This document shows, in pieces, positions 1 to 43,101 of a DNA stretch of 43,197 bases. Under the pieces are notes generated by a model. That model searched no databases, was not told the DNA's origin, and saw only the letters and a list, made by a program, of their open reading frames with translations. The number at the start of each line of letters is the position of its first letter. Within the stretch, counting starts at the first letter, position 1. The position numbers and the translations under genes were made by a program. The stretch is from a virus (Duplodnaviria; Caudoviricetes): positions 1-43,197 of IMG/VR virus record IMGVR_UViG_3300037313_001003. One strand, written 5' to 3'.

Positions 1-80
1 ATTCGTAAATCCTAATCTCGGTGTCAGTGTATAGCCTGATGCTGAGATCTCGGCAGAAGGCTCCCTCGGGGGCCTTTTTT
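1..80 (+). ncRNA. Putative ~80-nt small RNA, copy 1
   Basis: Single-stranded 5' tail, hairpin ATCTCGGTGTCAG/CTGATGCTGAGAT (G-U pairs on + strand), then an intrinsic terminator; identical to copy 2, which has a promoter directly upstream. Confidence 0.65.
57..80 (+). terminator. Intrinsic terminator
   Basis: AAGGCTCC-CTCG-GGGGCCTT stem-loop running into a T6 tract. Confidence 0.8.
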
Positions 81-1400
81 CGTACTCACACAGTCTTATT
101 AAAAACTTATCAACCAGGCCGCAGCAGTCGGCCATAGTTTGTGTGTAGCAGTTTGGCAAGTAGCGCAAGATGCCAGGATATGGCAGCCCTCCGGGTCTAT
201 TTGCCGAAGCTCATACACATAAACATCTGCAATACATTAAGACAGTAACAGTACTCCTTAAGAGTAGCTTGACTGGCTAAATCTAGTAACAAGCATGGGG
301 ATTTCTAGCCCCGCCTAACCTAATCAGTTAGACAGAAGTAGGCTTAGAGTGGTGATGTCTAACGAGCCACTAGGGAGATATAGATTTCCCCACCATTGTT
401 ACTAGACCTATAGCTGGCGGTAAACACCCTTTGCTCAGAGCTTTTAGTATGGTTTGCAAGCCTACTAAATAGGGGCTGAGAGCGCATTAAAGCGTGGCGC
501 TAGGTGAGCTTTTGCCTCCAGCTATAGCTAGTTAAGTACTTAGGGAGTGTTACAGCGATAGTAAGTAACCCAGTGTGGACTAATGAGTTAAGGAATGCCA
601 CACCGTCAAAGTCACCTCCGCATAGGACTGACAGGTGAATACTCATTCTTACTGTCGTAGCTGGTAGGTGATAAAAGGTGTTTCGGGTTGCCAATCCCTT
701 CACTGCCAGCGCTGTTACTGTCTTAATGAGTATTACTTCGACTACAGGGCCACTGGGTAACAGGCTATAAAGGTAGTGAGTAGGTATGAGAGGGGCATCC
801 TGTCGGGGCAACGACGATTGTGTGTAGGAGGCATCTGAAACACATGGGCCATAAACGCTTAGTTTGCAGGATAGCGAAGCGAGTGCGTCTGTCCGTCCCC
901 TCGTACTTACTCATTACTGGTTGCCCCATAGACGCCTTGTAGTTGAGGGTAGAAGTGATACTAAGGTAGTGGTACATATGAAAGGCTAGACTGAGGGGTT
1001 GCGATATCCTCCATTCGAGTGTTTTAGGATCACTGAGTTGGACACAAACAACAAAAGTTGTAAGTAACAACATAACAAATACCTAGCTATGTATGAAAAG
1101 ACGGTAGCAATAGACTAGCGCCTTAGAGACGTTGCTTCATGGTTGGTAAGTCATCTTATGAGGGTAACCGTGAACAGTCACAGTAAGACTGAGCGGTATG
1201 GAGATTTAGTGCTTAAAACACCTAAGTCTTCATCATATCACATAGCGAACTAGCTAAGATATGAGCAAATCTACAATATGCAAAGTAAAGAACGAAGCGT
1301 ATATATAAGAATATAAACAGGAGGATGTTGCAGGAATAGTGACCGGAGCACCGCACCTTATGAGGCCACAGGCTCCCTACGTTATTAATGTAATGTACTC
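81..1400 (+). ncRNA. Giant structured ncRNA, copy 1 (~1.3 kb; GOLLD-like architecture, family unverified)
   Basis: No credible ORF. Long-range helices: 235-251/712-728 (perfect 17 bp), 252-262/539-549, 556-565/648-657, 739-750/934-945, ~999-1011/1321-1332. G-U pairs indicate + strand. Scaffold conserved in copy 2. Ends approximate. Confidence 0.85.
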
Positions 1401-1418
1401 TCCAAGACAAACAAACTA

Positions 1419-1447
1419 TTGATTAAATAACATGAGCGAGAGATAAT
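1419..1447 (+). promoter_or_regulatory. Sigma70-type promoter for integrase
   Basis: TTGATT-17-GATAAT; copy 2 keeps similar hexamers and the 17-bp spacing while the spacer diverges. Confidence 0.65.
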
Positions 1448-1585
1448 CATAGAGCAACGGTAGACCGTCTCGTAGGCCACCAAGAAATGGCTAGTGCGAG
1501 TGGCAACTACTAGACTCTCTCACAGGGTGAAGTCCGGCTTCTAGAAAGTCTGTACCCTGTTAATTATCTCTATAAGGAAGGCATT

Positions 1586-1717
1586 ATGGTGAGAACCAAA
1601 AATGTCTGTGGCTGCCCTCATCTCTGGGTCTTCGACAACTTCAAGAGAACGCAGCACACAGACAGTATTAGTGTACTCCTCTTTCTGTTCGACAAGAAGG
1701 TGAGATATGTCAATTAG
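1586..1717 (+). CDS. Putative 43-aa upstream ORF overlapping the integrase start
   Basis: AAGGAAGG SD, ATG 1586, MVRTKNVCGCPHLWVFDNFKRTQHTDSISVLLFLFDKKVRYVN*; open with identical length in unit 2. Confidence 0.5.
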   Translation: MVRTKNVCGCPHLWVFDNFKRTQHTDSISVLLFLFDKKVRYVN

Positions 1718-2537
1718 TGAGGCTTTTCAGTCTTATGCTAATGACGTAATCGTGTTCAAGAACCAGAGCAAGAAAACTGAGGAAAATCACTTTATCGTCA
1801 TGAAGGCGCTGATATCTCATTTCGGAGACGTTGAGATAGAGTCGCTTACTTTCCCTATGGTTCGCGATTGGAAAGCTAAACTAGTGGCTACACGGTCCGA
1901 TGCTACTGTTAGGAACTATATTATCAAGTTACGGATCGTCCTCGATTACCTGCACACTCGCGGGGTGGACTGTTTATCACCTGAGTCAATTCCGGTTCCG
2001 AAACGAGCCGATAAAGTACCCGTGTACCTTACAAAAGAGCAAGTCGCACAATGCATCACTGCTACTAAGAAGCTCAAGAACAAGGCAATTGTCTCCCTGC
2101 TCTACTCCAGCGGTATTCGTATTAGTGAACTGTGTTCCTTGGACCGGGGCCAAATTAAAGACGGGAGGTTTACGATCGTTGGTAAAGGCGGTAAGGCGAG
2201 ACTATGCTTTATAGACGCACGAACACAAATGTTACTCGACTGGTACTTAGCCGAACGAGATGACAATAACCCTGCGCTGTTTGTCTGCGAGAGCGGCACA
2301 CGCATACGGCCTGGTACGATCCAAGAGACGTTTAAGACTATCCGCAAGCAAACCGGTTTAGATGTCCACCCACACACCCTACGACACTCATTTGCGACGA
2401 ATCTGCTTTCCACCAACACCAACCTGTACCACGTATCACGTATGCTCGGACATCAACAGTTGAACACGACAGCTACTTATCTTCACGTCGTAGACCATGA
2501 CCTCCAAGAGGTCTATATGAAGCATCATACGGTATAG
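1707..2537 (+). CDS. int: Tyrosine recombinase/integrase (XerC/D-like)
   Basis: Catalytic motifs SGIRISE, GKGGK, HTLRH, LGH and TTATY. Confidence 0.95.
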   Translation: MSISEAFQSYANDVIVFKNQSKKTEENHFIVMKALISHFGDVEIESLTFPMVRDWKAKLVATRSDATVRNYIIKLRIVLDYLHTRGVDCLSPESIPVPKRADKVPVYLTKEQVAQCITATKKLKNKAIVSLLYSSGIRISELCSLDRGQIKDGRFTIVGKGGKARLCFIDARTQMLLDWYLAERDDNNPALFVCESGTRIRPGTIQETFKTIRKQTGLDVHPHTLRHSFATNLLSTNTNLYHVSRMLGHQQLNTTATYLHVVDHDLQEVYMKHHTV

Positions 2538-22914: not shown

Positions 22915-23564
22915 TAGACGAACATCCCATCCTTTCCGAATAACTGTTCTTCATCGTGATACGGTATCTGTGTACTAATTGGTTGCTCTGTCTGGTACAA
23001 CTGCCATGCTCCAGCTAGGGCCATGATCAAGTCGTCGTGTGCCCCCTTTTCTGCCTGGGCTTTCCAACTACTTGAGGTTTGGGCGATGATAAATGAGAAC
23101 ATTTCATTGATGGTGGGTTTGTCGTATATACGAATGAGTTTGTTATCGATAGCTTCTTTAAGCATCGCGAGCATAGTCGGACGGGTTGCAGAGTTAGTCG
23201 TATAGCCGAGTCGGACAGAGTTACCTGTACTTTCGGTACTGCCGATGTTTTGCTTCTCTTGATATATGTGGTACTTGCCTTGTCGATTGAGTGCGGCCAG
23301 ACGTTCCATCTCCGCCACGCCACCGTTATTGCGTTCAAAGGCCACCACTGGCTGAACCTGCGTTGCATCATAAATCCTTTCTAATTCGTTATGTACTAAG
23401 GGTGTCATCTCGGTTGCGAGTACCTTGGAGTGATAGACTACTGGTACATCGAGCTTAGTCTTACTGAGGAACTGTACTGCTGAGTAGTCCAACCCTCCCC
23501 AGGCTGTATCGGCGAAGACAACGAAAAACTCATTCGGTTCGTAATGACGGTACCGCCTAAACAT
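22914..23564 (-). CDS. Terminase large subunit, nuclease domain (separate ORF; start revised)
   Basis: ADTAWGGLDYS, FERNNGG, GAHDDLIMALA RNase H-like motifs; ATG overlaps upstream stop. Confidence 0.88.
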   Translation of the reverse strand: MFRRYRHYEPNEFFVVFADTAWGGLDYSAVQFLSKTKLDVPVVYHSKVLATEMTPLVHNELERIYDATQVQPVVAFERNNGGVAEMERLAALNRQGKYHIYQEKQNIGSTESTGNSVRLGYTTNSATRPTMLAMLKEAIDNKLIRIYDKPTINEMFSFIIAQTSSSWKAQAEKGAHDDLIMALAGAWQLYQTEQPISTQIPYHDEEQLFGKDGMFV

Positions 23565-24237
23565 TTTTTTTACCCTGTTCGTGTTCGGCCGCTCGGAGCA
23601 CGCCGTCTGGCGTTCCCATGTCAGCAAAGTAACCTTGGTGCTCTATGAACTGAGTACCCAGTTGGCGATAGTAATTGTGTATGTCGACAATCTCGAGTTC
23701 ACCTGATTGTGCCGGAGTCATGCCATCAATGAAGTCGAATACCCGTTCATCGTAGTAGTAGCCGATAATAGCTTTACGCCCGATATCTATGTAACGAGGT
23801 TTCTCAATGATAGTGTCAGACTCGGGATGCCAGACTGAATGACTCGTGCCATGTTCAAACTCATGCCAGAACAAAGTAGGTTCAGTCTGTGACTTGAGTG
23901 GAGGATCGTAGTAACAGTCACCGAGAAGTAACGGGAAGATCCCTTTTACAAGATCTCGAGCCTTACTTATAGCATCAGCTACTCCTTTCGGTTCTGCCTG
24001 GACGCGGTAGATAAGATCTAATCCTACACGGTCGCCTTCTTTGAAGTAGGATGCGATGTCTCCTATAGCTTGAGGGCTTGCAATAATCACGGCTGAGTCA
24101 CAACCCATCGCTTTTAGCGTGTTAAGGGGGTACTCAATAGCCGGGCGATCGTAAACCATAGCCATTGCTTTAGACTGCACTTCGGTCTGTGGGGCAAGTC
24201 GTGAGCCTGAGCCACCAGCAAGTATTACGCCTCTCAT
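23557..24237 (-). CDS. Sugar-phosphate nucleotidyltransferase (RmlA/RfbA-like)
   Basis: GVILAGGSGSRL, Q.EPKG.ADA, LGD, EKP, GELEI.D, DMGT motifs. Confidence 0.9.
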   Translation of the reverse strand: MRGVILAGGSGSRLAPQTEVQSKAMAMVYDRPAIEYPLNTLKAMGCDSAVIIASPQAIGDIASYFKEGDRVGLDLIYRVQAEPKGVADAISKARDLVKGIFPLLLGDCYYDPPLKSQTEPTLFWHEFEHGTSHSVWHPESDTIIEKPRYIDIGRKAIIGYYYDERVFDFIDGMTPAQSGELEIVDIHNYYRQLGTQFIEHQGYFADMGTPDGVLRAAEHEQGKKNV

Positions 24238-25037
24238 ACCGTCATTGGCTCCTTAGCCTGCTCTAGGTACCACTGGAGGGCTTCCATATCGAAGTAACCA
24301 TCACCAGATGTAACGAAAGCTTCCTGTGCTGATTCAGGGTACTCTTGCTTAAACAATCGTCCTTGCGTCTTACGCTTCTGATCTAGAAACTCTGCTGAGT
24401 AGAAGTCACTAGCCCTGTAGAAATGCGCCGCCCACCCTGTTTCACCCATAACCGATGAGTCGTAAAATGTCTTAAATTCATTGAACCCATTAGCAGTTGT
24501 CTCAATCACTGCCTTACCGCCAGGTACAAGCGCGGAGTCCACACTAGCTAATAGCTCGGTGAAATTCTTATAAAATGCTGCTTCGGATAAGTGTAGGTTA
24601 TGGATAGTCTTAGAGCGTCCGAAATCTGAGTTCTCAGCTGTGCCGATGATGTAACGACTACCGTTATGACTGTTCTGCAATTCATATTTGGAGTTGTACT
24701 TCAGGATTCCGTTCTTGCCCTCGAGCGGTAGATTGTTATACGCACAGTATGCAGCTAGGTAATGCTTGACCCGGGCTAGCAGATCTTTAGCATTATCCGA
24801 GATGTCAGCAACAACTACTGATAAGGTGTTCTCTTTGAGTAAGAAGTCAGCAGTGAAGGCTGCGAGAATGAAGCTAGAGAAGCCTTGCTGCCGTGCTTTA
24901 AGGATTATGTCCCTGCCTGTAGCGTCTTGTACGAATTTCTCTTGAATAGGGTTTAGTGTAAACGGTAACTCCTGCCTGTCCTTGTTGACGATAGTCAGGC
25001 GAGCTTCAATGAATCGCTTGTAGGGTTCGTAGATCAT
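24234..25037 (-). CDS. Terminase large subunit, ATPase domain (separate ORF)
   Basis: LNPIQ Q-motif, LKARQQGFS Walker A, LHLSE Walker B, ETTANG coupling motif, FKQEYP. Confidence 0.92.
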   Translation of the reverse strand: MIYEPYKRFIEARLTIVNKDRQELPFTLNPIQEKFVQDATGRDIILKARQQGFSSFILAAFTADFLLKENTLSVVVADISDNAKDLLARVKHYLAAYCAYNNLPLEGKNGILKYNSKYELQNSHNGSRYIIGTAENSDFGRSKTIHNLHLSEAAFYKNFTELLASVDSALVPGGKAVIETTANGFNEFKTFYDSSVMGETGWAAHFYRASDFYSAEFLDQKRKTQGRLFKQEYPESAQEAFVTSGDGYFDMEALQWYLEQAKEPMTV

Positions 25038-34380: not shown

Positions 34381-34937
<557 letters not shown>

Positions 34938-35418: not shown

Positions 35419-35934
35419 TTAATAGCAAGCAACCTTATGGCGGCAAACGCCCCACTGTCCTATAAAGCTGTGGCCGTTAGCGGCGTATATCTTATAGGCC
35501 CAAGCGACGTTAATGCTTGCTACTTTCAGTTCCGCTTCGCTTGGTCTGGTGAGCGCATTAGCGCCCCAGATGTTTACTTGGAAGCAGCCAACCGAGTAAT
35601 CGTATGTTGACGGGTTATAATTTACTTGCCCCGGGTCTAACCCACTTTCGGCGGTAGAAACTTCTAACGCTACAGTTTGAGACCAATCATACTTGGATAT
35701 CTCAGCTTCACAACTCCCTGTTGGAACTGTTGGTGTAGGTTGCACTGGCTGTTGTGCTTGTTGAGCTTGTGGCTCTGGCGTCTCAGTTGCCGCAACCTTC
35801 ACCTGCGGTGCTGTTGATTGCACCGCTACCGATTCTGACTTTTTAATGTTCTGAGACGCTCGATTCGTGTTGTTTAGGGTCTGATTTGTTGGTATCGCCA
35901 AAATTAAGGCAATAGCAAACCCGACCAATCGCAA
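35419..35934 (-). CDS. Secreted lytic transglycosylase / lysozyme-like protein
   Basis: Signal peptide, Pro/Gln/Thr linker, AESG catalytic Glu, GCFQVN motif; TTG start. Confidence 0.82.
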   Translation of the reverse strand: MRLVGFAIALILAIPTNQTLNNTNRASQNIKKSESVAVQSTAPQVKVAATETPEPQAQQAQQPVQPTPTVPTGSCEAEISKYDWSQTVALEVSTAESGLDPGQVNYNPSTYDYSVGCFQVNIWGANALTRPSEAELKVASINVAWAYKIYAANGHSFIGQWGVCRHKVACY

Positions 35935-36104
35935 TGAACGAATGGCGTACCTCTTTTTAAGTAGATTGAAGGCTCTACATTAGCCTTGGTGAATATGGCT
36001 TCACCGCACCGTATAAACCTCTATGTTCTACCTCTGTTGTGAGCCGACTCATCAAGTCGTTGGCTGCTCATCGGTTGAGGAGAACTCCAGCTTTTTAAGG
36101 GCTG

Positions 36105-36153
36105 GTCTGATGTCGATGATCAGATTTCGTAAATCCTAGTCTCGGCATCAGAC
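36105..36153 (-). promoter_or_regulatory. Leader hairpin, predicted sRNA target
   Basis: Inverted repeat GTCTGATGTCGA/TCGGCATCAGAC; 36126-36151 matches 36427-36452 at 23/26 positions. Confidence 0.6.
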
Positions 36154-36174
36154 TTAAATTAAAAAGTCCGGGGG

Positions 36175-36203
36175 TGGAAATCCCGAACCGTATCTGTTAT
36201 GCT
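36175..36203 (+). promoter_or_regulatory. Phage-borne promoter for the target tRNA
   Basis: TGGAAA-17-TATGCT with TG extension, 12 bp before the tRNA fragment. Confidence 0.5.
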
Positions 36204-36215
36204 AGATGACGTTAT

Positions 36216-36261
36216 GCCATCTTAGCTCAGGGGTAGAGCACTTCCATGGTAAGGAAGGGGT
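36216..36261 (+). tRNA. 5' fragment of tRNA-Thr(GGU); probable att core region
   Basis: GCCATCT-TA-GCTC AGGGGTA GAGC-A-CTTCC ATGGTAA GGAAG-GGGT: intact D and anticodon arms, no T-arm or 3' acceptor strand. Confidence 0.88.
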
Positions 36262-36343
36262 TCTGACCTCTGTACGGTCGAGTTTTCCGAGTGCTAAGCT
36301 TTTAAGGCAACGATTGAAGCGTAATGCTTAATTGTTACTTAAG

Positions 36344-36372
36344 AGTATAGAGCATAAGCGCACTATTGTCAA
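36344..36372 (-). promoter_or_regulatory. Near-consensus leftward sigma70 promoter (candidate early/lytic promoter)
   Basis: TTGACA-17-TATACT on minus strand, pointing across att. Confidence 0.8.
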
Positions 36373-36390
36373 TATATATTGTTAATTAGC

Positions 36391-36419
36391 TTGAACAAAT
36401 TGCGAAACTTTGCTATTAT
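36391..36419 (+). promoter_or_regulatory. Rightward promoter for sRNA / giant RNA
   Basis: TTGAAC-17-TATTAT with TG extension; predicted start ~36426. Confidence 0.7.
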
Positions 36420-36425
36420 ATAAGT

Positions 36426-36505
36426 ATTCGTAAATCCTAATCTCGGTGTCAGTGTATAGCCTGATGCTGAGATCTCGGCAGAAGGCTCCCTCGGGGGCCT
36501 TTTTT
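36426..36505 (+). ncRNA. Putative ~80-nt small RNA, copy 2
   Basis: Bounded by promoter and intrinsic terminator; identical to 1-80. Confidence 0.7.
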
Positions 36506-37706
36506 CGTACTCACACAGTCTTATTAAAAACTTATCAACCAGGCCGCAGCAGACGGCCATAGTTTGTGTGTAGTAGTGAGATGGTGTCAGAGAGCGAGTA
36601 TAAACGTGTGGGTGAAATAAAATACTAGTTACCCAGGTTTAATGATGAAGCAGAGTCGCTAATGCCTCGACCGTCTATGCTCTGTACTGGCGACGGATAG
36701 CCCATAGTACAGCGCGCTCAGGTTCGAATCCTGGCCATCTCTCTCATACACATAAACATCTGCAATACATTAAGACAGTAACAGTACTCCTTAAGAGTAG
36801 CTTGAGGGTAGTAGTGCTAGTAGTAACAAGCCTGGCGGTCATCGACTTTTGGGCTGAACCGAGTCCAGGAAAGCCCCGTGCTACTAGCTCTCATACCCTT
36901 AAGAGTTCACTTATGAGACTTTGGGTCCTTTTATAAGGCTTAGGGAGTGTTACAGCGATAGTAAGTTACGCCTAAACGAATAACTATCACCCAGAGCGTG
37001 TTTAGTGATAGGTTTACTGTCGTTAGCTGGTAGGGGCGTCAGCCTGTACGACCTCTGGTGACAAGTCGTAACTACCAGCGCTGTTACTGTCTTAATGAGT
37101 ATTACTTCGACTACAGGGCCACTGGGTAACAGGCTATAAAGGTTGAGGTCAGTTTGTCGGGACTCTCTATGCGTAATGGCGAGAGATAGATACACAGATC
37201 TGGGAAGAATCCGAAAGGAGCGTCCCGGCGGCATCTGACTTTAACTGGTTGCCCCATAGACGCCTTGTAGTTGAGGGTAGAAGTGATACTGAGGTAGTGG
37301 TACATATGAAAAGCTAGACTGAGGGGTTGCGATATCCTCCAGACGAGTGTTTTAGGATCACTGAGTTGGACACAAACAACATAACAAATACCTAGCTATG
37401 TATGAAAAGACGGTAGCAGTAGACTAGCGCCTTAGAGACGTTGCTTCATGGTTGATAAGTCATCTTATGAGGGTAACCGTGAACAGTCAACAAAGACTGA
37501 GCGGTATGGAGAGTTAGTGCTTAAAATACTAAGTCTTCATCATATCACATAGCAGACTAGCTAAGATATGAGCAAATCTACAATATGCAGAACCTAAAAC
37601 TAGGCGTATATATAAGAATATAAGCAGGAGGATATTGCAGGAATAGTGACCGGAGCACCGCACCTTATGAGGCCAAGACTCCCTACGTTATTAATGTAAT
37701 GTACTC
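36506..37706 (+). ncRNA. Giant structured ncRNA, copy 2 (~1.2 kb)
   Basis: Same scaffold helices as 81-1400 with different inserts; pairing-preserving changes such as CTGCCAGC vs CTACCAGC opposite GCTGGTAG and GTAAG vs ATAAG opposite CTTAT. Confidence 0.85.
36578..36741 (+). other. tRNA-like module embedded in the giant RNA
   Basis: 7-bp acceptor GAGATGG/CCATCTC and T-arm TCAGG-TTCGAAT-CCTGG with a ~130-nt non-canonical interior. Confidence 0.7.
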
Positions 37707-37723
37707 CATCAAATAAAAATCTA

Positions 37724-37752
37724 TTGTCAAAACATAATCTAAGCGAGATAAT
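37724..37752 (+). promoter_or_regulatory. Integrase promoter, unit 2
   Basis: TTGTCA-17-GATAAT. Confidence 0.65.
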
Positions 37753-37850
37753 GAGAACGCAACGGGAAGCTTAAGCGACCTAGACTCTCTGCAGGGGGAA
37801 GTCCGGCTAACATAGTCTGTACCCTGTTAAATCTCTATAAGGAAGGCATT

Positions 37851-37982
37851 ATGGTGAGAACCAAAAATGTCTGTGGCTGCCCCCATCTCTGGGTCTGGAT
37901 AAACTTCAAGAGAGAACAGCACACAGACAGTATTAGTGTACTCCTCTTTCTGTTCGACATGAAGGTGAACTATGTCAATTAG
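37851..37982 (+). CDS. Putative 43-aa uORF overlapping int, unit 2
   Basis: MVRTKNVCGCPHLWVWINFKREQHTDSISVLLFLFDMKVNYVN*. Confidence 0.5.
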   Translation: MVRTKNVCGCPHLWVWINFKREQHTDSISVLLFLFDMKVNYVN

Positions 37983-38802
37983 TGAGGCTTTTCAGTCTTA
38001 TGCTAATGACGTAATCGTGTTCAAGAATCAGAGTAAGAAGACTGAGGAGAATCACTTTATCGTCATGAAGGCGCTTATATCTCATTTTGGAGACATTGAG
38101 ATTGAGTCGCTTACTTTCCCTATGGTTCGTGACTGGAAGATGCTTCTCGACAAGACCCGTTCTGATGCTACCGTCAGGAACTACATTATTAAACTACGGG
38201 TGGTGCTGGACTACTTAGAGAAACACGGCCACAGCGGCCTGAGAGCCGATCAGGTGCCGGTTCCAAAGCGCCGGGATAAAGTGCCGACATTCCTAACTAA
38301 GCACGAAGTAACCCAGTGTATTGACGCTACTAAGCGGATTAAGAATAAGGCTATCATTGCCCTGCTCTACGCCTCTGGGATACGTATCTCCGAACTGTGT
38401 CAGCTCGATCGTGGTGAGTTAAAAGACGGCTCATTTACAGTAATTGGTAAAGGTGGTAAGGCTCGACTCTGCTTCTATGACGAGCGGGCTAATACGCTTA
38501 TTAAACTCTACTTAGAATCCAGGGAAGATAATAACCCTGCTCTCTTCTTATCAGATATGGGACTCCGGATTACGCCAGGCTGTATTCAGGAGACATTTAA
38601 GAGTGTCCGTAAGCAAACCGGCCTCGACGTCCATCCGCATACTCTTCGGCACTCTTTCGCAACCAACTTATTACAATCGAATACAAATTTGTTCCATGTA
38701 TCTAAACTCTTGGGTCATGCTCAATTGAACACCACAAGTCAGTATCTCCATGTAGTTAATGAAGACCTTCGTTCTGTATATATGAAGCATCATACGGTGT
38801 AG
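37972..38802 (+). CDS. int: Tyrosine recombinase/integrase, unit 2
   Basis: Same catalytic motifs; 55 of the first 56 residues identical to unit 1, more diverged after. Confidence 0.95.
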   Translation: MSISEAFQSYANDVIVFKNQSKKTEENHFIVMKALISHFGDIEIESLTFPMVRDWKMLLDKTRSDATVRNYIIKLRVVLDYLEKHGHSGLRADQVPVPKRRDKVPTFLTKHEVTQCIDATKRIKNKAIIALLYASGIRISELCQLDRGELKDGSFTVIGKGGKARLCFYDERANTLIKLYLESREDNNPALFLSDMGLRITPGCIQETFKSVRKQTGLDVHPHTLRHSFATNLLQSNTNLFHVSKLLGHAQLNTTSQYLHVVNEDLRSVYMKHHTV

Positions 38803-38984
38803 TGCGCTTACACTCTCCCACGGCATATTCTCCCTTTTGAGGCGGGATGGGGGTGTGGGCCTGCAATAGCCCGAAAGAAGAGATGTTTGTTTGTGTATAG
38901 ACTTCAGCAAAGAAAATCGAAGGATTGAAAGGAACGAAGGGAACGAGCCCTGAGAGAGTATAAAAGCACTAAATTGTTAAGGTA

Positions 38985-39218
38985 CTAGCGGTCTATGAGC
39001 TGGTAGAATGGATCAAAACGCTCAGGAATAACTTGTAGAAGATGCAAAGCAGTAACGCCGATCCCACCAATAACCAAAGGGCGAGTATGATGATTTTCGA
39101 GTCCTCGCTTTGCAGCATGGGTGAGCGTTTCGCTAGCCAGTAAGTCCCACGCCAGTACAAAAGCCCCAAGCGCAAGCCAACCGTATGTGCCGTTGGTAGT
39201 TTCATTAGTCCTCCTCAT
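38985..39218 (-). CDS. Small membrane protein
   Basis: Homolog of 2719-2955. Confidence 0.8.
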   Translation of the reverse strand: MRRTNETTNGTYGWLALGAFVLAWDLLASETLTHAAKRGLENHHTRPLVIGGIGVTALHLLQVIPERFDPFYQLIDR

Positions 39219-39339
39219 TATTTAGTCCTGATAAGTCGTCGATAAATATGTCATGCACCTCAACAAGGCGCGGTAGTATGATTTCTTTAACCATTGGATA
39301 GACAAACTCACGGTCAGGCTCCGGTTCATTCTCAGGCAT
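39205..39339 (-). CDS. Small hypothetical protein (44 aa, not in ORF track)
   Basis: MPENEPEPDREFVYPMVKEIILPRL...; homolog of 2942-3070. Confidence 0.65.
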   Translation of the reverse strand: MPENEPEPDREFVYPMVKEIILPRLVEVHDIFIDDLSGLNNEED

Positions 39340-39571
39340 AAACGTTCCTCAGTTTAGTTTCCTGTGGTGACCGGCTCATAACGTGCTGGAACTCATACCA
39401 TGGGTCTTGCCCTTCCGTGATGTCGTGAGCAAAGTTCGGGCCGGCATTATCTTGAACGGTCACAAAGAAATGTTCAGGGTTTGTCCGTACCATCCAGAGC
39501 GTAATAAGAAGTCCGGCGTTTCTCCGTTCTGCTAGGTCTATTACTGATTCGTCTGGTTGTAGTTGTTCCAT
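39332..39571 (-). CDS. Hypothetical protein
   Basis: Diverged homolog of 3063-3305. Confidence 0.7.
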   Translation of the reverse strand: MEQLQPDESVIDLAERRNAGLLITLWMVRTNPEHFFVTVQDNAGPNFAHDITEGQDPWYEFQHVMSRSPQETKLRNVYA

Positions 39572-39760
39572 GCTTTTTCCTTTAATCTGTATCCCATAAC
39601 CACGGCCAAGGCGGTTAATTAGTGCGTGACTTCTTGGAGTAAATCTAGAAGTCGTTGTGTGTCTGCTTTGCTATAGGGGTCGAGTTTGCCCTCTTTTATG
39701 ACTGTGGATAAAAACTCACAGAGCCATACCCAGTCATTCACTGGGAGGTTCACTGTGATG

Positions 39761-40009
39761 CTATTCAACATTCAGTGTCCTATAGACGGCATGCTGGTTA
39801 CTATCTGCGAGTATCCACATGCGCTCTTTTACAAGTTTCTTTAGTGCCTTTAACTGATGGCCTTCAGGTGTGGCTGCTTCTATGGTGGTAAGCAAGTCTC
39901 CTAGCGCCATGTTAGTGTTTGTGCGAAGCTGGCTTGCTATCGCTGTGCCATACTCGTACTCTTTAGTCGTATGGTCGTTCTTTTCTTTACTTTCCGATGC
40001 TGGTTGCAT
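39761..40009 (-). CDS. Hypothetical protein (unit 2 only)
   Basis: GGAGG SD; helical; no counterpart at this position in unit 1. Confidence 0.7.
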   Translation of the reverse strand: MQPASESKEKNDHTTKEYEYGTAIASQLRTNTNMALGDLLTTIEAATPEGHQLKALKKLVKERMWILADSNQHAVYRTLNVE

Positions 40010-40097
40010 AGAACTATCCTCTTCTTTTCTTGGCCGCAGATAGGGATATAGATTGTTAATTTACGAGGTAGTTTTACGACTTGCCAAGGTCGAGCTT

Positions 40098-40421
40098 TTA
40101 CTCCCAATCTGGGGGGAAGTTACTGCTTCTTATATCTTTATAGTGAAATTCCTCGAACACCTCCCGATCCATATCTGAGATGTTGGGTAGGTTGAGGTGT
40201 ACGGTGAATTCCTTATCGAGCATGTACTCTGCTACTTCATTAAAGGTAGAGTTAGAGTTCCATAAGTAATGACCGGAATTTGAACCATCGTCTTCAGTCG
40301 AAACAATAAAGACATGGTCGTAACAAGCGAGCTCACCCATAAACGTGTATAAATAGGTGTTCTCTCTGGTGCCTTCGAGTTCTTGACCGCCAAAGGTGAA
40401 TTTAATGCGTGGCTCAGACAT
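40098..40421 (-). CDS. Acidic hypothetical protein (unit 2 only)
   Basis: Coupled to exonuclease stop. Confidence 0.7.
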   Translation of the reverse strand: MSEPRIKFTFGGQELEGTRENTYLYTFMGELACYDHVFIVSTEDDGSNSGHYLWNSNSTFNEVAEYMLDKEFTVHLNLPNISDMDREVFEEFHYKDIRSSNFPPDWE

Positions 40422-41211
40422 ACTTCATCCGCTCTTCTGATTGCCTAAACTCAGCGACTCGCGCTTTCATGGGGTGTCCACAATCGCCACAGCGGAAGTA
40501 CTGATACTTGTTGGCTTTGGTTGAGGCGTACTTCATACCGGCTTTGATGTTTTCTGAAAGACAAACCCGACAAGCGTTCGGCCGTTCGGCGAGCACGTTC
40601 ATTGCGGGGTGATTCTTGATCCACGGGCGGAGTTCTAAATACAAGGCTTCCAGAGATTCAATATCTCCCTTGTTGTACTTCTTCATGTGTTTCCAGGCTT
40701 TCTTATCGCCTGCCATACAGCCGTCCCAGGTCTTCATACCGCCGGCGTCGAGCTTGTGCTGGAGTTCCAAAGACTTGCAGAGGTCTGACAGCTTATTAGA
40801 GGTATGAGCGCCGCTACGCTTGGCTTCTAGCTTGGTGTCTATCTGGGCGTACGGCATCGGCGGGTATAAATGGTGGATCTGCATCCGAGCTTGTACCTTC
40901 TTTTGATCGAAGGAATTGCCATTGTGAGCGATAACCACATCGGCTTTAGTGAAGAGGTCGGCCAGGTACTCAACCACTTTGCGGTCGTTCGACTTGTCAC
41001 GCTTGTAATCTAGGGGGAAGTCAGGTAATGCAACGACAGTGACTTTCTTATCCCCGAGCCACTTGTAAGCAAAACAGAGGATGTACCAGTCGTTGACGAT
41101 TCTGCGTTCGATAGGGCGGTCATCCCAGAGTCCCCATCGTTTTTCAGTTGTTTCTATATACGAAGTCTCGATATCGTACAGTAAGATGCGCGGATTAGGC
41201 TGCTTGTTCAT
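40414..41211 (-). CDS. DnaQ/RNase H-like exonuclease with Zn ribbon
   Basis: DIET, AHNGNSFD, YNKGD, CRVC...CGDC. Confidence 0.85.
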   Translation of the reverse strand: MNKQPNPRILLYDIETSYIETTEKRWGLWDDRPIERRIVNDWYILCFAYKWLGDKKVTVVALPDFPLDYKRDKSNDRKVVEYLADLFTKADVVIAHNGNSFDQKKVQARMQIHHLYPPMPYAQIDTKLEAKRSGAHTSNKLSDLCKSLELQHKLDAGGMKTWDGCMAGDKKAWKHMKKYNKGDIESLEALYLELRPWIKNHPAMNVLAERPNACRVCLSENIKAGMKYASTKANKYQYFRCGDCGHPMKARVAEFRQSEERMKYV

Positions 41212-41590
41212 AAATACCCTCTACAGCTATAAAACCTAGCTGCTTAGTTAAGTGATTACCGATACGTTCAGAACGTCCGGCTATTCGTGGTGAGGTGTGT
41301 GTTTCAGCTTGCTCATAGAAGTATTGAATTGCAGCTTCTATGCCCCAGGTTCCGAGTCGTTGTTCGCGTGGTGTATTGTCTAAAATGTCTACCAGTTCGT
41401 GCATCTGACTACGGGTCGGTTTCGGCGGCCCATAGAACAGTTCATGGTGGAGGTCACGGTGCGCTTGTACATCCATTTTTATGATTAACCCCCTGTTATT
41501 TCGGAAGCGCTTCTCCATGGCCTCGCGGTAGACGCGGCGGTGGTAGAACGCATGGTGGTGGTTCTGGTCGTATGACTCAGAACACGCCAT
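41195..41590 (-). CDS. His-rich hypothetical protein
   Basis: Positional diverged homolog of 4109-4417. Confidence 0.65.
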   Translation of the reverse strand: MACSESYDQNHHHAFYHRRVYREAMEKRFRNNRGLIIKMDVQAHRDLHHELFYGPPKPTRSQMHELVDILDNTPREQRLGTWGIEAAIQYFYEQAETHTSPRIAGRSERIGNHLTKQLGFIAVEGIYEQAA

Positions 41591-41594
41591 TGCT

Positions 41595-41870
41595 TTAGCT
41601 CTTCCGTCCTAGCGCTAAGCTAAGAAGTACTGGCACAATTTGCGTTCTGATGGCTGCAAGCCCCGCTCCCACAGCGCCAGCAATGGTTAACTGAACCTCG
41701 GCGGCTGAGTGTGCAGCTAATATATGAGCAGCAAAGTACGCCGATGCTACCTGCCAGGCTGTATGAAAAGCCCTGTCGGCCGCTGGATGGGCGATAAGCC
41801 AAGCGTTCACTGCGCGAACCGTAGATATAATCGAATAAGTAACTCGGGCTAAAAAAGCTTTAATTTTCAT
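41595..41870 (-). CDS. Putative holin
   Basis: RAFHTAWQ motif, hydrophobic, after endolysin. Confidence 0.7.
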   Translation of the reverse strand: MKIKAFLARVTYSIISTVRAVNAWLIAHPAADRAFHTAWQVASAYFAAHILAAHSAAEVQLTIAGAVGAGLAAIRTQIVPVLLSLALGRKS

Positions 41871-41879
41871 GATTACTCC

Positions 41880-42680
41880 TTACTTGAAAACACTAGTTAG
41901 TTTGCTCAGTATTGATTGGACTATTTCGAGTATTTGTTTAAGCAGTGTGTTGTTCTCCTTAACTACTGCGTTAGTGTCATCAACGGGTACGGGAGCGGGT
42001 GGAATGGTGGGCGGTGGTGGTACAGGAACTTCGACAGGTGCCGGTACTGGCTCTGGTACAGGAGCCGGTGTTGGTTGTGGTTGGACAGCGTGATAGCCGT
42101 ACTTCTTCAGAACGTCTAAAGATACGAAACAGGCGTTCGTGTCGAGTGGTGAGCCTTGGTACTGGTGAATAATGTAAGGAGGCGTGTTCGGTATGTCCTG
42201 GTCTGGCGAATAGCGGTAATCTGCGAGCCATAGGCCACAGTTCTTTAATACGTCCTTAAAGCCGTACTGCTGGAGCATTGAGGTGTAGGTGTAGAACAAC
42301 GGCCATACGCCGGTCTTTTCGTGTACTCGATTTACAAATGCTAAACACCAAGCGTTAGGGTCTGCTGGTGGGTTCATACTTGCAGTGAGTTCGTAGTCGA
42401 GAATAAGGATGTCACCGTGAGCGAGTGGAGAACATGCACCGATAAAGAAATCAGCTTCTTGGATAGGGTCTGCCCCACCGGCGAAGTGGTAGAGGCCAGG
42501 AACCTTGCCTAAGCGGATAGCGTTATTGTAGTTTCGAGCAGCCTGGGTGTCGTAATAGCCCTGCTTACTTCCGTAGTAGAAACCGCTCATCTTCATAAAG
42601 ACGATGGGTGACTGGTCAGCGTCCATGTTGTATTGACCCTGGGCGTACGAAACATCAAAGAACTTAATATAGTTAGACAT
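41880..42680 (-). CDS. Endolysin, GH25 muramidase with Pro-rich linker
   Basis: DVSYAQG, GLYHF, LDYE, LWLADY, DTN motifs. Confidence 0.9.
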   Translation of the reverse strand: MSNYIKFFDVSYAQGQYNMDADQSPIVFMKMSGFYYGSKQGYYDTQAARNYNNAIRLGKVPGLYHFAGGADPIQEADFFIGACSPLAHGDILILDYELTASMNPPADPNAWCLAFVNRVHEKTGVWPLFYTYTSMLQQYGFKDVLKNCGLWLADYRYSPDQDIPNTPPYIIHQYQGSPLDTNACFVSLDVLKKYGYHAVQPQPTPAPVPEPVPAPVEVPVPPPPTIPPAPVPVDDTNAVVKENNTLLKQILEIVQSILSKLTSVFK

Positions 42681-43101
42681 TAGCTTCCTCCTTTTTTGCT
42701 ATGTATCTTGCGTGCCAATAGTCTTTAGTTGATTGTTTAGCGTTGTATCGTCTCCAAGAGGCAGTTCGACAGGTCTTGCAGTAGCGTTGCTTTGCGTTCC
42801 TGCCGTCCAATGGATGCCCTTTAGCGCATTTATCCAGATTGTCGTAGTATTGTTTCGCTTTTACATTGGCGTGAAGTGCTTGGTGTTCACTTCTAGTCAT
42901 AGGTGTGAGGTGGTCAGGATTTACGCACCACTTGTTTTCGCATTCATGATGAATAACCAAGTCGCTGCTAATAAGTCCGTGTTTATCCATATATGCGAGA
43001 CGGTGCTGCGGGTACGTAACACCGTTTCGGGTCTTACGGTAGTAACCTCTGTGAATTGTGCCAGTGCCTCTTTTGCAAGGAGTGTCGTGAAAGGTAATCA
43101 T
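42673..43101 (-). CDS. HNH homing-type endonuclease (unit 2 only)
   Basis: HRLAY, IHHEC.NKWCVNPDHL, CAKGH...CKTC. Confidence 0.88.
   Translation of the reverse strand: MITFHDTPCKRGTGTIHRGYYRKTRNGVTYPQHRLAYMDKHGLISSDLVIHHECENKWCVNPDHLTPMTRSEHQALHANVKAKQYYDNLDKCAKGHPLDGRNAKQRYCKTCRTASWRRYNAKQSTKDYWHARYIAKKEEANV

Follow-up and report, generated by a model that had tools for sequence, protein, structure and literature searches.

A virus record of 43,197 nt, which carries terminase, capsid, lysis, and integrase genes and is called the window here in its whole length, contains the same long, base-paired element twice, each time upstream of an integrase gene. What is this element, does it belong to a known class of RNA, and what are the different sequences inserted in its two copies? 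A first-pass annotation had proposed a giant RNA in which a conserved scaffold displays exchangeable cargo. We compared the two copies with each other, with relatives from other records, and with known RNA families. These comparisons point to an apparently undescribed family of large structured RNAs that is well supported by comparison and for which there is genuine evidence that modules are traded.

Two alleles on one scaffold

Allele A of the large RNA (positions 99 to 1202, + strand) consists of the family core and add-on domains, as defined by the alignment of 14 members described below. Allele B spans 36524 to 37512 on the same strand, with its closing helix P1 at 36530-36541/37449-37460. 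Self-BLAST and pairwise alignment matched positions 1-152 to 36426-36577 (150/152), 210-272 to 36743-36805 (63/63), 539-569 to 36939-36969 (30/31), and 702-774 to 37071-37143 (72/73). Identity between the scaffold blocks was 97 to 100%, except in one short block (648-668, resembling 37014-37035) that has two small gaps. On the 3' side of position 916, the alleles are 90.7% identical over 485 columns.

Slot 1 lies at 153-209 in A and 36578-36742 in B, slot 2 at 273-538 and 36806-36938, slot 3 at approximately 570-647 and 36970-37013, slot 4 at 669-701 and 37036-37070, and slot 5 at 775-915 and 37144-37243. These refined boundaries agree within a few bases with those of the first-pass annotation, and its picture of near-identical scaffold blocks interrupted by five largely unrelated inserts was confirmed. 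The 19-nt indel that it described is also real; we place it at 1047-1065 instead of 1053-1071, in a short repeat that makes the register ambiguous. The conserved 3' portion of about 480 nt holds for the allele comparison from position 916, but its end, approximately 1216-1400, is a separate module.

Alignment of the A and B inserts was no better than that of shuffled sequences: for slots 1 to 5, 196, 13, 163, 152, and 36 of 200 shuffles scored equally high or higher. Slot 2, with its 13/200, is borderline and has a shared 14/15-nt stretch. Relative to 40 dinucleotide shuffles, the fold z-scores were -2.9 (A) and -1.7 (B) for slot 1, -5.3 and -2.0 for slot 2, and -4.6 and -3.5 for slot 5, while the inserts of slots 3 and 4 did not fold above shuffles (+0.3, -0.6, +0.3, and -1.1). 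Folding above shuffles is thus a property of the larger inserts, those of slots 1, 2, and 5; the B insert of slot 2 forms two adjacent hairpins, not a single closed arm. The scaffold helices are the same in the two alleles, with pairing probabilities above 0.7 in both. No + strand open reading frame (ORF) of at least 80 amino acids (aa) overlaps either copy, and the - strand ORFs that do overlap them had no PHROG or Pfam match.

The record begins with a 127-nt stretch identical to 36426-36552. Window positions 35733-42799 are 98.9% identical to an independent 37.9-kb IMG/VR contig (L001/L002), and allele B is present whole in that contig and in sequencing runs X3 and X4. In run X1, A-type pieces had a depth of about 33 versus 8 to 16 for B-type pieces. 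The simplest reading is that the window probably consists of two co-occurring related phages joined by the assembler; alternatively, the copies may come from tandem prophages. In either case, both copies represent naturally occurring alleles. Close relatives of the integrases sit in Patescibacteria and Saccharibacteria records, so a Saccharimonadia bacterium is the likely host.

Run X1 also contained extra joints in window positions 1-1800 (143>218, 281>512, 548>712, and 733>1223) at a depth of 10 to 12, with sides of only 21 to 30 nt. They hint at further alleles or at another element with a shortened add-on domain. None of the sequencing runs listed as containing the element was an RNA run. 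Elsewhere in the window, terminase-related matches are spread over adjacent short ORFs at 22917-25037 (237 and 267 aa, with a 226-aa ORF between them).

Fourteen members with a common core

Integrase-based searches and DNA patterns yielded 12 further distinct members (L005, L007, L016, L019, L021, L101, L104, L116, L118, L120, L122, and L123), for a total of 14. Among the matches of the individual patterns, duplicates included, 6/6, 5/8, 8/14, 3/6, and 4/5 were true members; the remainder (3/8, 6/14, 3/6, and 1/5) lacked the other motifs and were discarded as chance matches. Between the 5' A-run and the end of P1, the 12 other members are 266 to 630 nt long, and the window alleles are 1,052 and 936 nt long. 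The RNA is therefore not giant as a family, and five slots are not a family trait. Slots 2 to 4 belong to an add-on domain (232-733, + strand) that is found in the window alleles only and combines slot 2 (273-538) with a three-way junction bearing slots 3 and 4; the region spans 597 and 541 nt in the two alleles versus 20 to 352 nt in the other 12 members. This natural size series from 266 to 1,052 nt maps where a folded RNA accepts cargo, and the natural minimal version of about 270 nt is an easy target for chemical probing and structure solution.

A BLAST search with one member matched 2 of 401 genomes of the class Saccharimonadia, both on phage-like contigs already among the members, and the element is therefore not a housekeeping RNA. 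Beyond the class set, we found 1 match in 301 family genomes and, with model R1, 2 matches in 151 phylum genomes. The second of the phylum matches (L146) had the motif but no match to the family 1 HMM and was rejected. GenBank phages and PLSDB plasmids gave no match. In the literature searched, which left most subscription papers outside its scope, there was no description of this RNA. It was not found in the part of the PMC10690425 supplements that was searched, and the remaining files could hold fragments among that study's candidates. We conclude that these elements form an uncatalogued family of conserved base-paired elements, absent from Rfam 15, in temperate phages likely infecting Saccharibacteria.

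We aligned all 14 members with MAFFT and examined four core helices: P1 (105-116/1140-1151), P4/5 (736-748/936-948), P7 (952-958/1132-1138), and P8 (961-966/1121-1126). In these helices, 97.2% of 531 cells are paired, and 21 of the 38 pairs have double-sided changes. When the partners were slid by 1 to 3 columns, 36 to 50% of the cells paired. The 14 sequences are related and a shuffle control ignores relatedness, so the weight lies on the slid control and on the variety of pair types. RNAalifold run on seven compact members, none of them from the window, found the same helices plus P6, with compensatory changes in 23 of 46 pairs. Across the 14 members, the four helices thus covary strongly. 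Helix cells contain 72 G-U pairs versus 2 A-C pairs, which points to the + strand as the RNA strand. Of 314 well-filled columns, 72 are identical in at least 13 of the 14 members, some of them in junctions.

P1, whose 5' strand is at 105-116 (+ strand), pairs with 1140-1151 and closes the whole domain. Ten of its 12 pairs have double-sided changes, 98.8% of its cells are paired, and none of 20,000 permutations exceeded its own partner. Because P1 joins the two ends, both belong to the core. The first-pass annotation had expected a conserved 3' half and a variable 5' half of the GOLLD type; instead, a 12-bp helix closes the conserved unit into one domain, which includes the 5' end. P4/5 (736-750/934-948 in full; 8 of 13 pairs with double-sided changes) and the P6 arm occupy 736-948 (+ strand), with slot 5 (775-915) at the tip of P6. 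The interior of this tip measures 37 to 50 nt in 10 members and 145 to 187 nt in 4. The most conserved part of the core, 945-1138 (+ strand), comprises an invariant junction motif, P7, P8, and the P8 interior, which varies from 77 to 200 nt and is the site of the 19-nt indel. A 3' tail with the P9 hairpin and a conserved purine-rich 3' strand follows at 1152-1202 (+ strand). Its motif is present in 13 of the 14 members, and it is likely the 3' end of the family unit. Across the family, the variable sites are the region after P2, the P6 tip, and the P8 interior; members differ in length only at arm tips and in one multiloop.

In most members, the C-run at 923-931 could form a pseudoknot with the 3' tail. 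This candidate was borderline in permutations of 13 sequences, with 2,412, 1,787, and 643 of 20,000 permutations as good (0.12, 0.09, and 0.03, depending on the window of positions used). Pseudoknot candidates from J2/3 and the 5' A-run had no support, since 8,938 and 5,998 of 20,000 permutations did as well.

A likely att site, a putative promoter, and a candidate small RNA precede the large RNA

The RNA had been placed near att and directly before int, and this position is supported, with the + strand assigned by covariation. The 5' half of a tRNA-Thr(GGT) gene at 36216-36261 (+ strand; partial tRNA match at 36225-36257, 18.3 bits) is likely the attP site and is similar to tRNA-like sequences beside the integrases of L006, L007, L008, and L022. 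A -10-like sequence stands in front of this half. In some relatives, the apparent att site, judged by eye, is a fragment of tRNA-Gly (L005 and L118) or tRNA-Val (L104).

A sigma-70-like promoter at 36391-36419 (+ strand) matches 9 of 12 consensus positions with a 17-nt spacer, and its predicted start, approximately 36426, corresponds to window position 1. Alone it is weak, because 6 promoter-like sites were found where 3.6 were expected; promoter-like sites are also present upstream in L005, L021, and L120. This promoter is predicted to drive a small RNA, the large RNA, and the integrase. The small RNA candidate (1-82, identical at 36426-36507, + strand) has a long hairpin, a terminator-like hairpin, and a U-tract, with a fold z-score of -4.6, and lies outside the large RNA family. 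A T4 run is found within 75 nt upstream of the core in 11 of the 14 members. Since a terminator-like hairpin stands just upstream, expression of the large RNA would need read-through or an unseen promoter.

The 5' end of the small RNA has an imperfect direct copy (23/26) at 36126-36151 (+ strand), in the leader region of the leftward early genes, which is a possible antisense target. L005 and L104 have a repeat of this kind with sequences of their own, 16 and 12 nt long, respectively, and inspection by eye suggests one in L020 as well. We found no annotated CI-type repressor among the ORFs searched. By analogy, the small hairpin RNA and the leader repeat may constitute an RNA-based immunity switch. 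In phage P4, the short CI RNA comes from the vicinity of att, and its 5' end is complementary to the early leader. Element 1-82, and not the large RNA, resembles it in its position near att and in a 5' end that matches the early leader; unlike CI RNA, it has no sequence or Rfam match. P4 is not known to have a large ornate RNA behind CI RNA. Separately, a 9-nt complementarity links the loop region of the small RNA (29-37) with the internal loop next to slot 5 (762-770).

Between the large RNA and the integrase lies a separate structured module (1216-1400, + strand) that is not part of the family core. Positions 1216-1558 are 76% identical to L143, a phage with a second RNA family (see below) and without the family 1 core. 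The segment 1318-1399 occurs, with different upstream sequence, in contigs of depth 100 to 235 in runs X3 and X4, and therefore lies in more abundant elements. A further module at 1510-1560 is shared with family 2 phages (L143; its last hairpin also with L003 and L020).

Evidence that modules move between alleles, positions, and scaffolds

The first line of evidence for exchange is that near-identical flanks surround unrelated inserts. The slot 1 arm (137-224, + strand; stem 137-147/214-224, insert 153-209) has related stems with other inserts in L005, L104, L120, and L123. In L122, the slot 1 arm is missing from its usual place, and its 3' flank sits inside slot 5, identical to L005 at 19/19 positions. 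In run X2 (record 9), a 248-nt contig joins the 3' end of the B insert of slot 1 to the scaffold and the A insert of slot 2 with no mismatch; at a depth of 4.6, and since alternatives can be lost from contigs, this joint is suggestive only.

In L003 (3400-3860), L008 (3400-3900), L020 (310-760), L142 (1880-2300), and L143 (1880-2520), the position directly before related integrases is taken by a second structured family, unrelated to the first. It has a near-invariant 30-nt motif, insertions at arm tips (e.g., about 190 nt in L008), and no match to an Rfam family, and so adds a second uncatalogued class in the same position. The three-way-junction module that bears slots 3 and 4 in the window (551-716, + strand) recurs in the family 2 RNA of L143, where three scaffold segments are the same and a third set of unrelated inserts fills the slots. 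Together with L122 and the X2 contig, this case supports the proposed exchange: modules do move between alleles, positions, and even scaffolds. The presence of one junction module in two unrelated cores is direct evidence for a shuffling of RNA domains comparable to that of protein domains.

The RNA also appears to be dispensable, and exchangeable in its entirety. In a tree built from 23 integrases, with 7 of its 20 inner branches open, phages with family 1, with family 2, and with no RNA interleave; family 1 requires 7 changes versus a shuffled mean of 7.7, and the family 2 phage L020 groups with the two window integrases at 100/97.

The cargo is varied. Slot 1 of L123 holds an 85-aa ORF, and the family 2 RNA of L142 contains a degenerate tRNA (28.3 bits versus a gathering threshold of 29). 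The B insert of slot 1 (36578-36741, + strand) has tRNA-like geometry by sequence and constrained fold: a 7-bp acceptor-like stem stacks on a T arm of 5 bp whose T-loop (36718-36734) is canonical. The constrained fold has an energy of -49.5 kcal/mol, compared with a free minimum of -51.0 kcal/mol. The likeness is limited to this stem and arm. The middle is not tRNA-like, and the insert lacks the full cloverleaf with its anticodon arm and 3' CCA; it gave no Rfam tRNA match at an E value of ≤10 and no ARAGORN call. No motif is common to the inserts, and a canonical tRNA-type T arm is found in only 1 of the 14 members; L122 has one further, noncanonical T arm. We also searched 351 class genomes for the insert regions as common host mobile hairpins, and neither allele had a match in this BLAST search of incomplete genomes, run without a positive control. 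Some members carry no insert at all, and the arms may therefore be neutral passengers.

No dedicated exchange machinery was found. Among the phage's gene products are a resolvase-like protein, an exonuclease, and a fragmentary SSB. At 34381-34704, the SSB appears as a 58-aa piece next to a 39-aa SSB-like start.

As a tentative generalization, at least two unrelated RNA cores beside the integrase of Saccharibacteria phages may act as a chassis and share a pool of self-closing modules (junction adaptors, tRNA mimics, and even small ORFs), which would pass from allele to allele, position to position, and core to core. Such modules might then be selected as displayed decoys or binding surfaces in conflicts among phage, host, and rival.

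A proposed mechanism and its alternatives

We propose, with even confidence for and against, that the element is a stand-alone structured RNA made in the lysogen, with an essential core that tolerates and carries exchangeable peripheral arms. It would be transcribed from the promoter beside attP by read-through of the small RNA terminator, and its invariant junctions would fold into a compact tertiary core. The arms would first arise as self-closing insertions and would then pass between coinfecting phages when the near-identical scaffold blocks undergo ordinary homologous recombination. Most speculatively, the arms, including the tRNA-like pieces, could be decoys or docking surfaces for RNA-binding proteins of the host or of rival phages, and the RNA could be a lysogen-protecting accessory RNA of the ROOL/GOLLD kind.

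A possible but doubtful alternative is that the element is a cis-acting leader of the integrase mRNA (an attenuator, a processing or stability element, or a ligand sensor) that sets integrase levels, with the inserts as tolerated passengers. The tyrosine integrase of allele A (276 aa, 1707-2537, + strand; PHROG and Pfam PF00589) and that of allele B (37972-38802) are 76% identical. An integrase starts on the same strand 162 to 555 nt after P1 in 11 of the 14 members, including 4 of the 7 found by DNA pattern alone, and two of these integrases are very distant, so a cis role also fits. The RNA and the small RNA that is possibly antisense to the early leader appear to form an operon with the integrase. 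Furthermore, strands 733-739 and 1132-1138 can both pair with 952-958, which would allow a switch. Yet the variable distance to the start codon, with interchangeable modules in between, fits a free RNA better than a switch. A U-tract after P9 was seen, by eye, in L005 only. Close relatives of the integrases have an unrelated RNA or none: seven phages with related integrases (L004, L006, L009, L010, L011, L022, and L031) have no match to either RNA family, although only 608 nt of upstream sequence is available for L004. In L118 and L122, other ORFs come first, and the L123 contig ends 91 nt past P1. The ORF directly after the RNA in L118 (660-920, 86 aa) has an HNH-like motif by eye, and its contig ends soon after.

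Less likely is a selfish RNA of the ribozyme or intron type, whether self-cleaving, self-splicing, or degenerate, that sits downstream of a terminator and gathers insertions at its periphery. A conserved core with insertions, including ORFs, at peripheral helix tips is seen in group I and II introns, RNase P RNA, and rRNA, and group IIC introns habitually insert just after terminators. The element shares the confinement of insertions, among them an ORF, to peripheral arm tips; it also has invariant junction bases around a compact core and a position right after a terminator-like hairpin. Against this reading, no intron or ribozyme model of Rfam matched the window regions or the compact member L019 at an E value of ≤10. 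Used singly, the group I model RF00028 matched 0 of 5 records at this threshold, with the control above cutoff in two genomes, and neither it nor the group II model RF02001 (D1-D4-3) matched the four family 1 records. Domain V/VI gave no match, and the column-pairing stems include no P3/P7-type pseudoknot. There is no reverse transcriptase or maturase among the annotated ORFs, no exon, and no interrupted gene. All members with known context occupy one kind of site. Moreover, unlike introns, RNase P RNA, and rRNA, this RNA has one junction module in two unrelated scaffolds.

We consider it very unlikely that the RNA is a partner of the short integrase that guides or scaffolds recombination, as bridge RNAs do for IS110 recombinases. 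The idea draws on the constant adjacency to a 276-aa integrase in which only the catalytic Pfam domain was matched, and on the core motif at 962-971, which in L005, L101, L104, L122, and L123 is identical over 10 to 11 nt to the 3' side of the tRNA-Thr anticodon arm (36250-36260), the att site of some of these phages. However, this match is kept by phages with other att sites, the window alleles differ and lack a 10-nt match to their own att, and the similarity is possibly due to chance. In a comparison of six RNAs with five att regions, matches to the own att (7 to 9 nt) were no longer than those to the others, and several close integrases have neither RNA upstream.

Still less probable is a GOLLD or ROOL member so diverged that the Rfam models miss it. 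According to two reports (PMC12286853 and PMC12990946), both are prophage RNAs that have variable regions and lie near tRNA islands; a tRNA can be embedded in GOLLD, and both RNAs form cages but have no known function. ROOL is reported to be abundant yet nonessential, with optional stems and a variable linker (PMC12286853). The likeness to GOLLD lies in a large, ornate phage or prophage RNA near tRNA genes with variable regions and embedded tRNA-like pieces; that to ROOL lies in a prophage-borne ornate RNA with optional stems and a variable linker. The setting here is of the GOLLD type, with phage genes, the tRNA-Thr half, and tRNAs or tRNA fragments beside the loci of other members.

The RNA differs from GOLLD in its architecture. 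In GOLLD, a conserved 3' domain stands apart from a variable 5' domain, and many members exceed 800 nt, whereas here one helix closes the domain from 5' to 3' end, the minimal core is about 270 nt (the two models have 416 and 574 positions), and the position before the integrase is fixed. ROOL has multiple pseudoknots and forms cages; the present RNA has one borderline pseudoknot candidate, and its likely host is a member of the Saccharimonadia. A search with the whole of Rfam 15 at an E value of ≤10, covering both window regions, L019, and the family 2 member L008, found no relevant family; over all Rfam scans, the only matches were tRNAs beside the loci and the degenerate tRNA of L142. GOLLD (RF02032) and ROOL (RF03087) gave no match at the gathering threshold and none at an E value of ≤10 in either window region or L019. 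As single models, RF02032 and RF03087 each matched 0 of 5 records at an E value of ≤10, results that are weak alone for ROOL, whose controls matched nowhere, and qualified for GOLLD, whose control genomes matched only below cutoff; neither search had a true positive control. The first-pass annotation had offered a GOLLD relative or a new class. The Rfam check that it suggested, with GOLLD, ROOL, and group I/II intron models, gave no match, so that by the available models the RNA is a new class, and membership in GOLLD is not supported. It resembles GOLLD and ROOL in setting and design and is not a member of either.

Large, ornate bacterial RNA classes are few and mostly have no function assigned so far, and a well-covarying class absent from Rfam 15 is added here. 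Its minimal and loaded versions make the question of cargo versus drift, which the variable parts of GOLLD- and ROOL-type RNAs also pose, directly testable.

Finally, DNA-level pairing (cruciforms or single-stranded DNA signals) or a mosaic created by assembly is scarcely credible and already largely refuted, for although the window is probably a chimeric contig that starts at a 127-nt exact repeat and has unequal allele depth in X1, the + strand excess of G-U over A-C (72 versus 2), the intact allele B in an independent contig and two other runs, and twelve further members from other records all speak against this reading.
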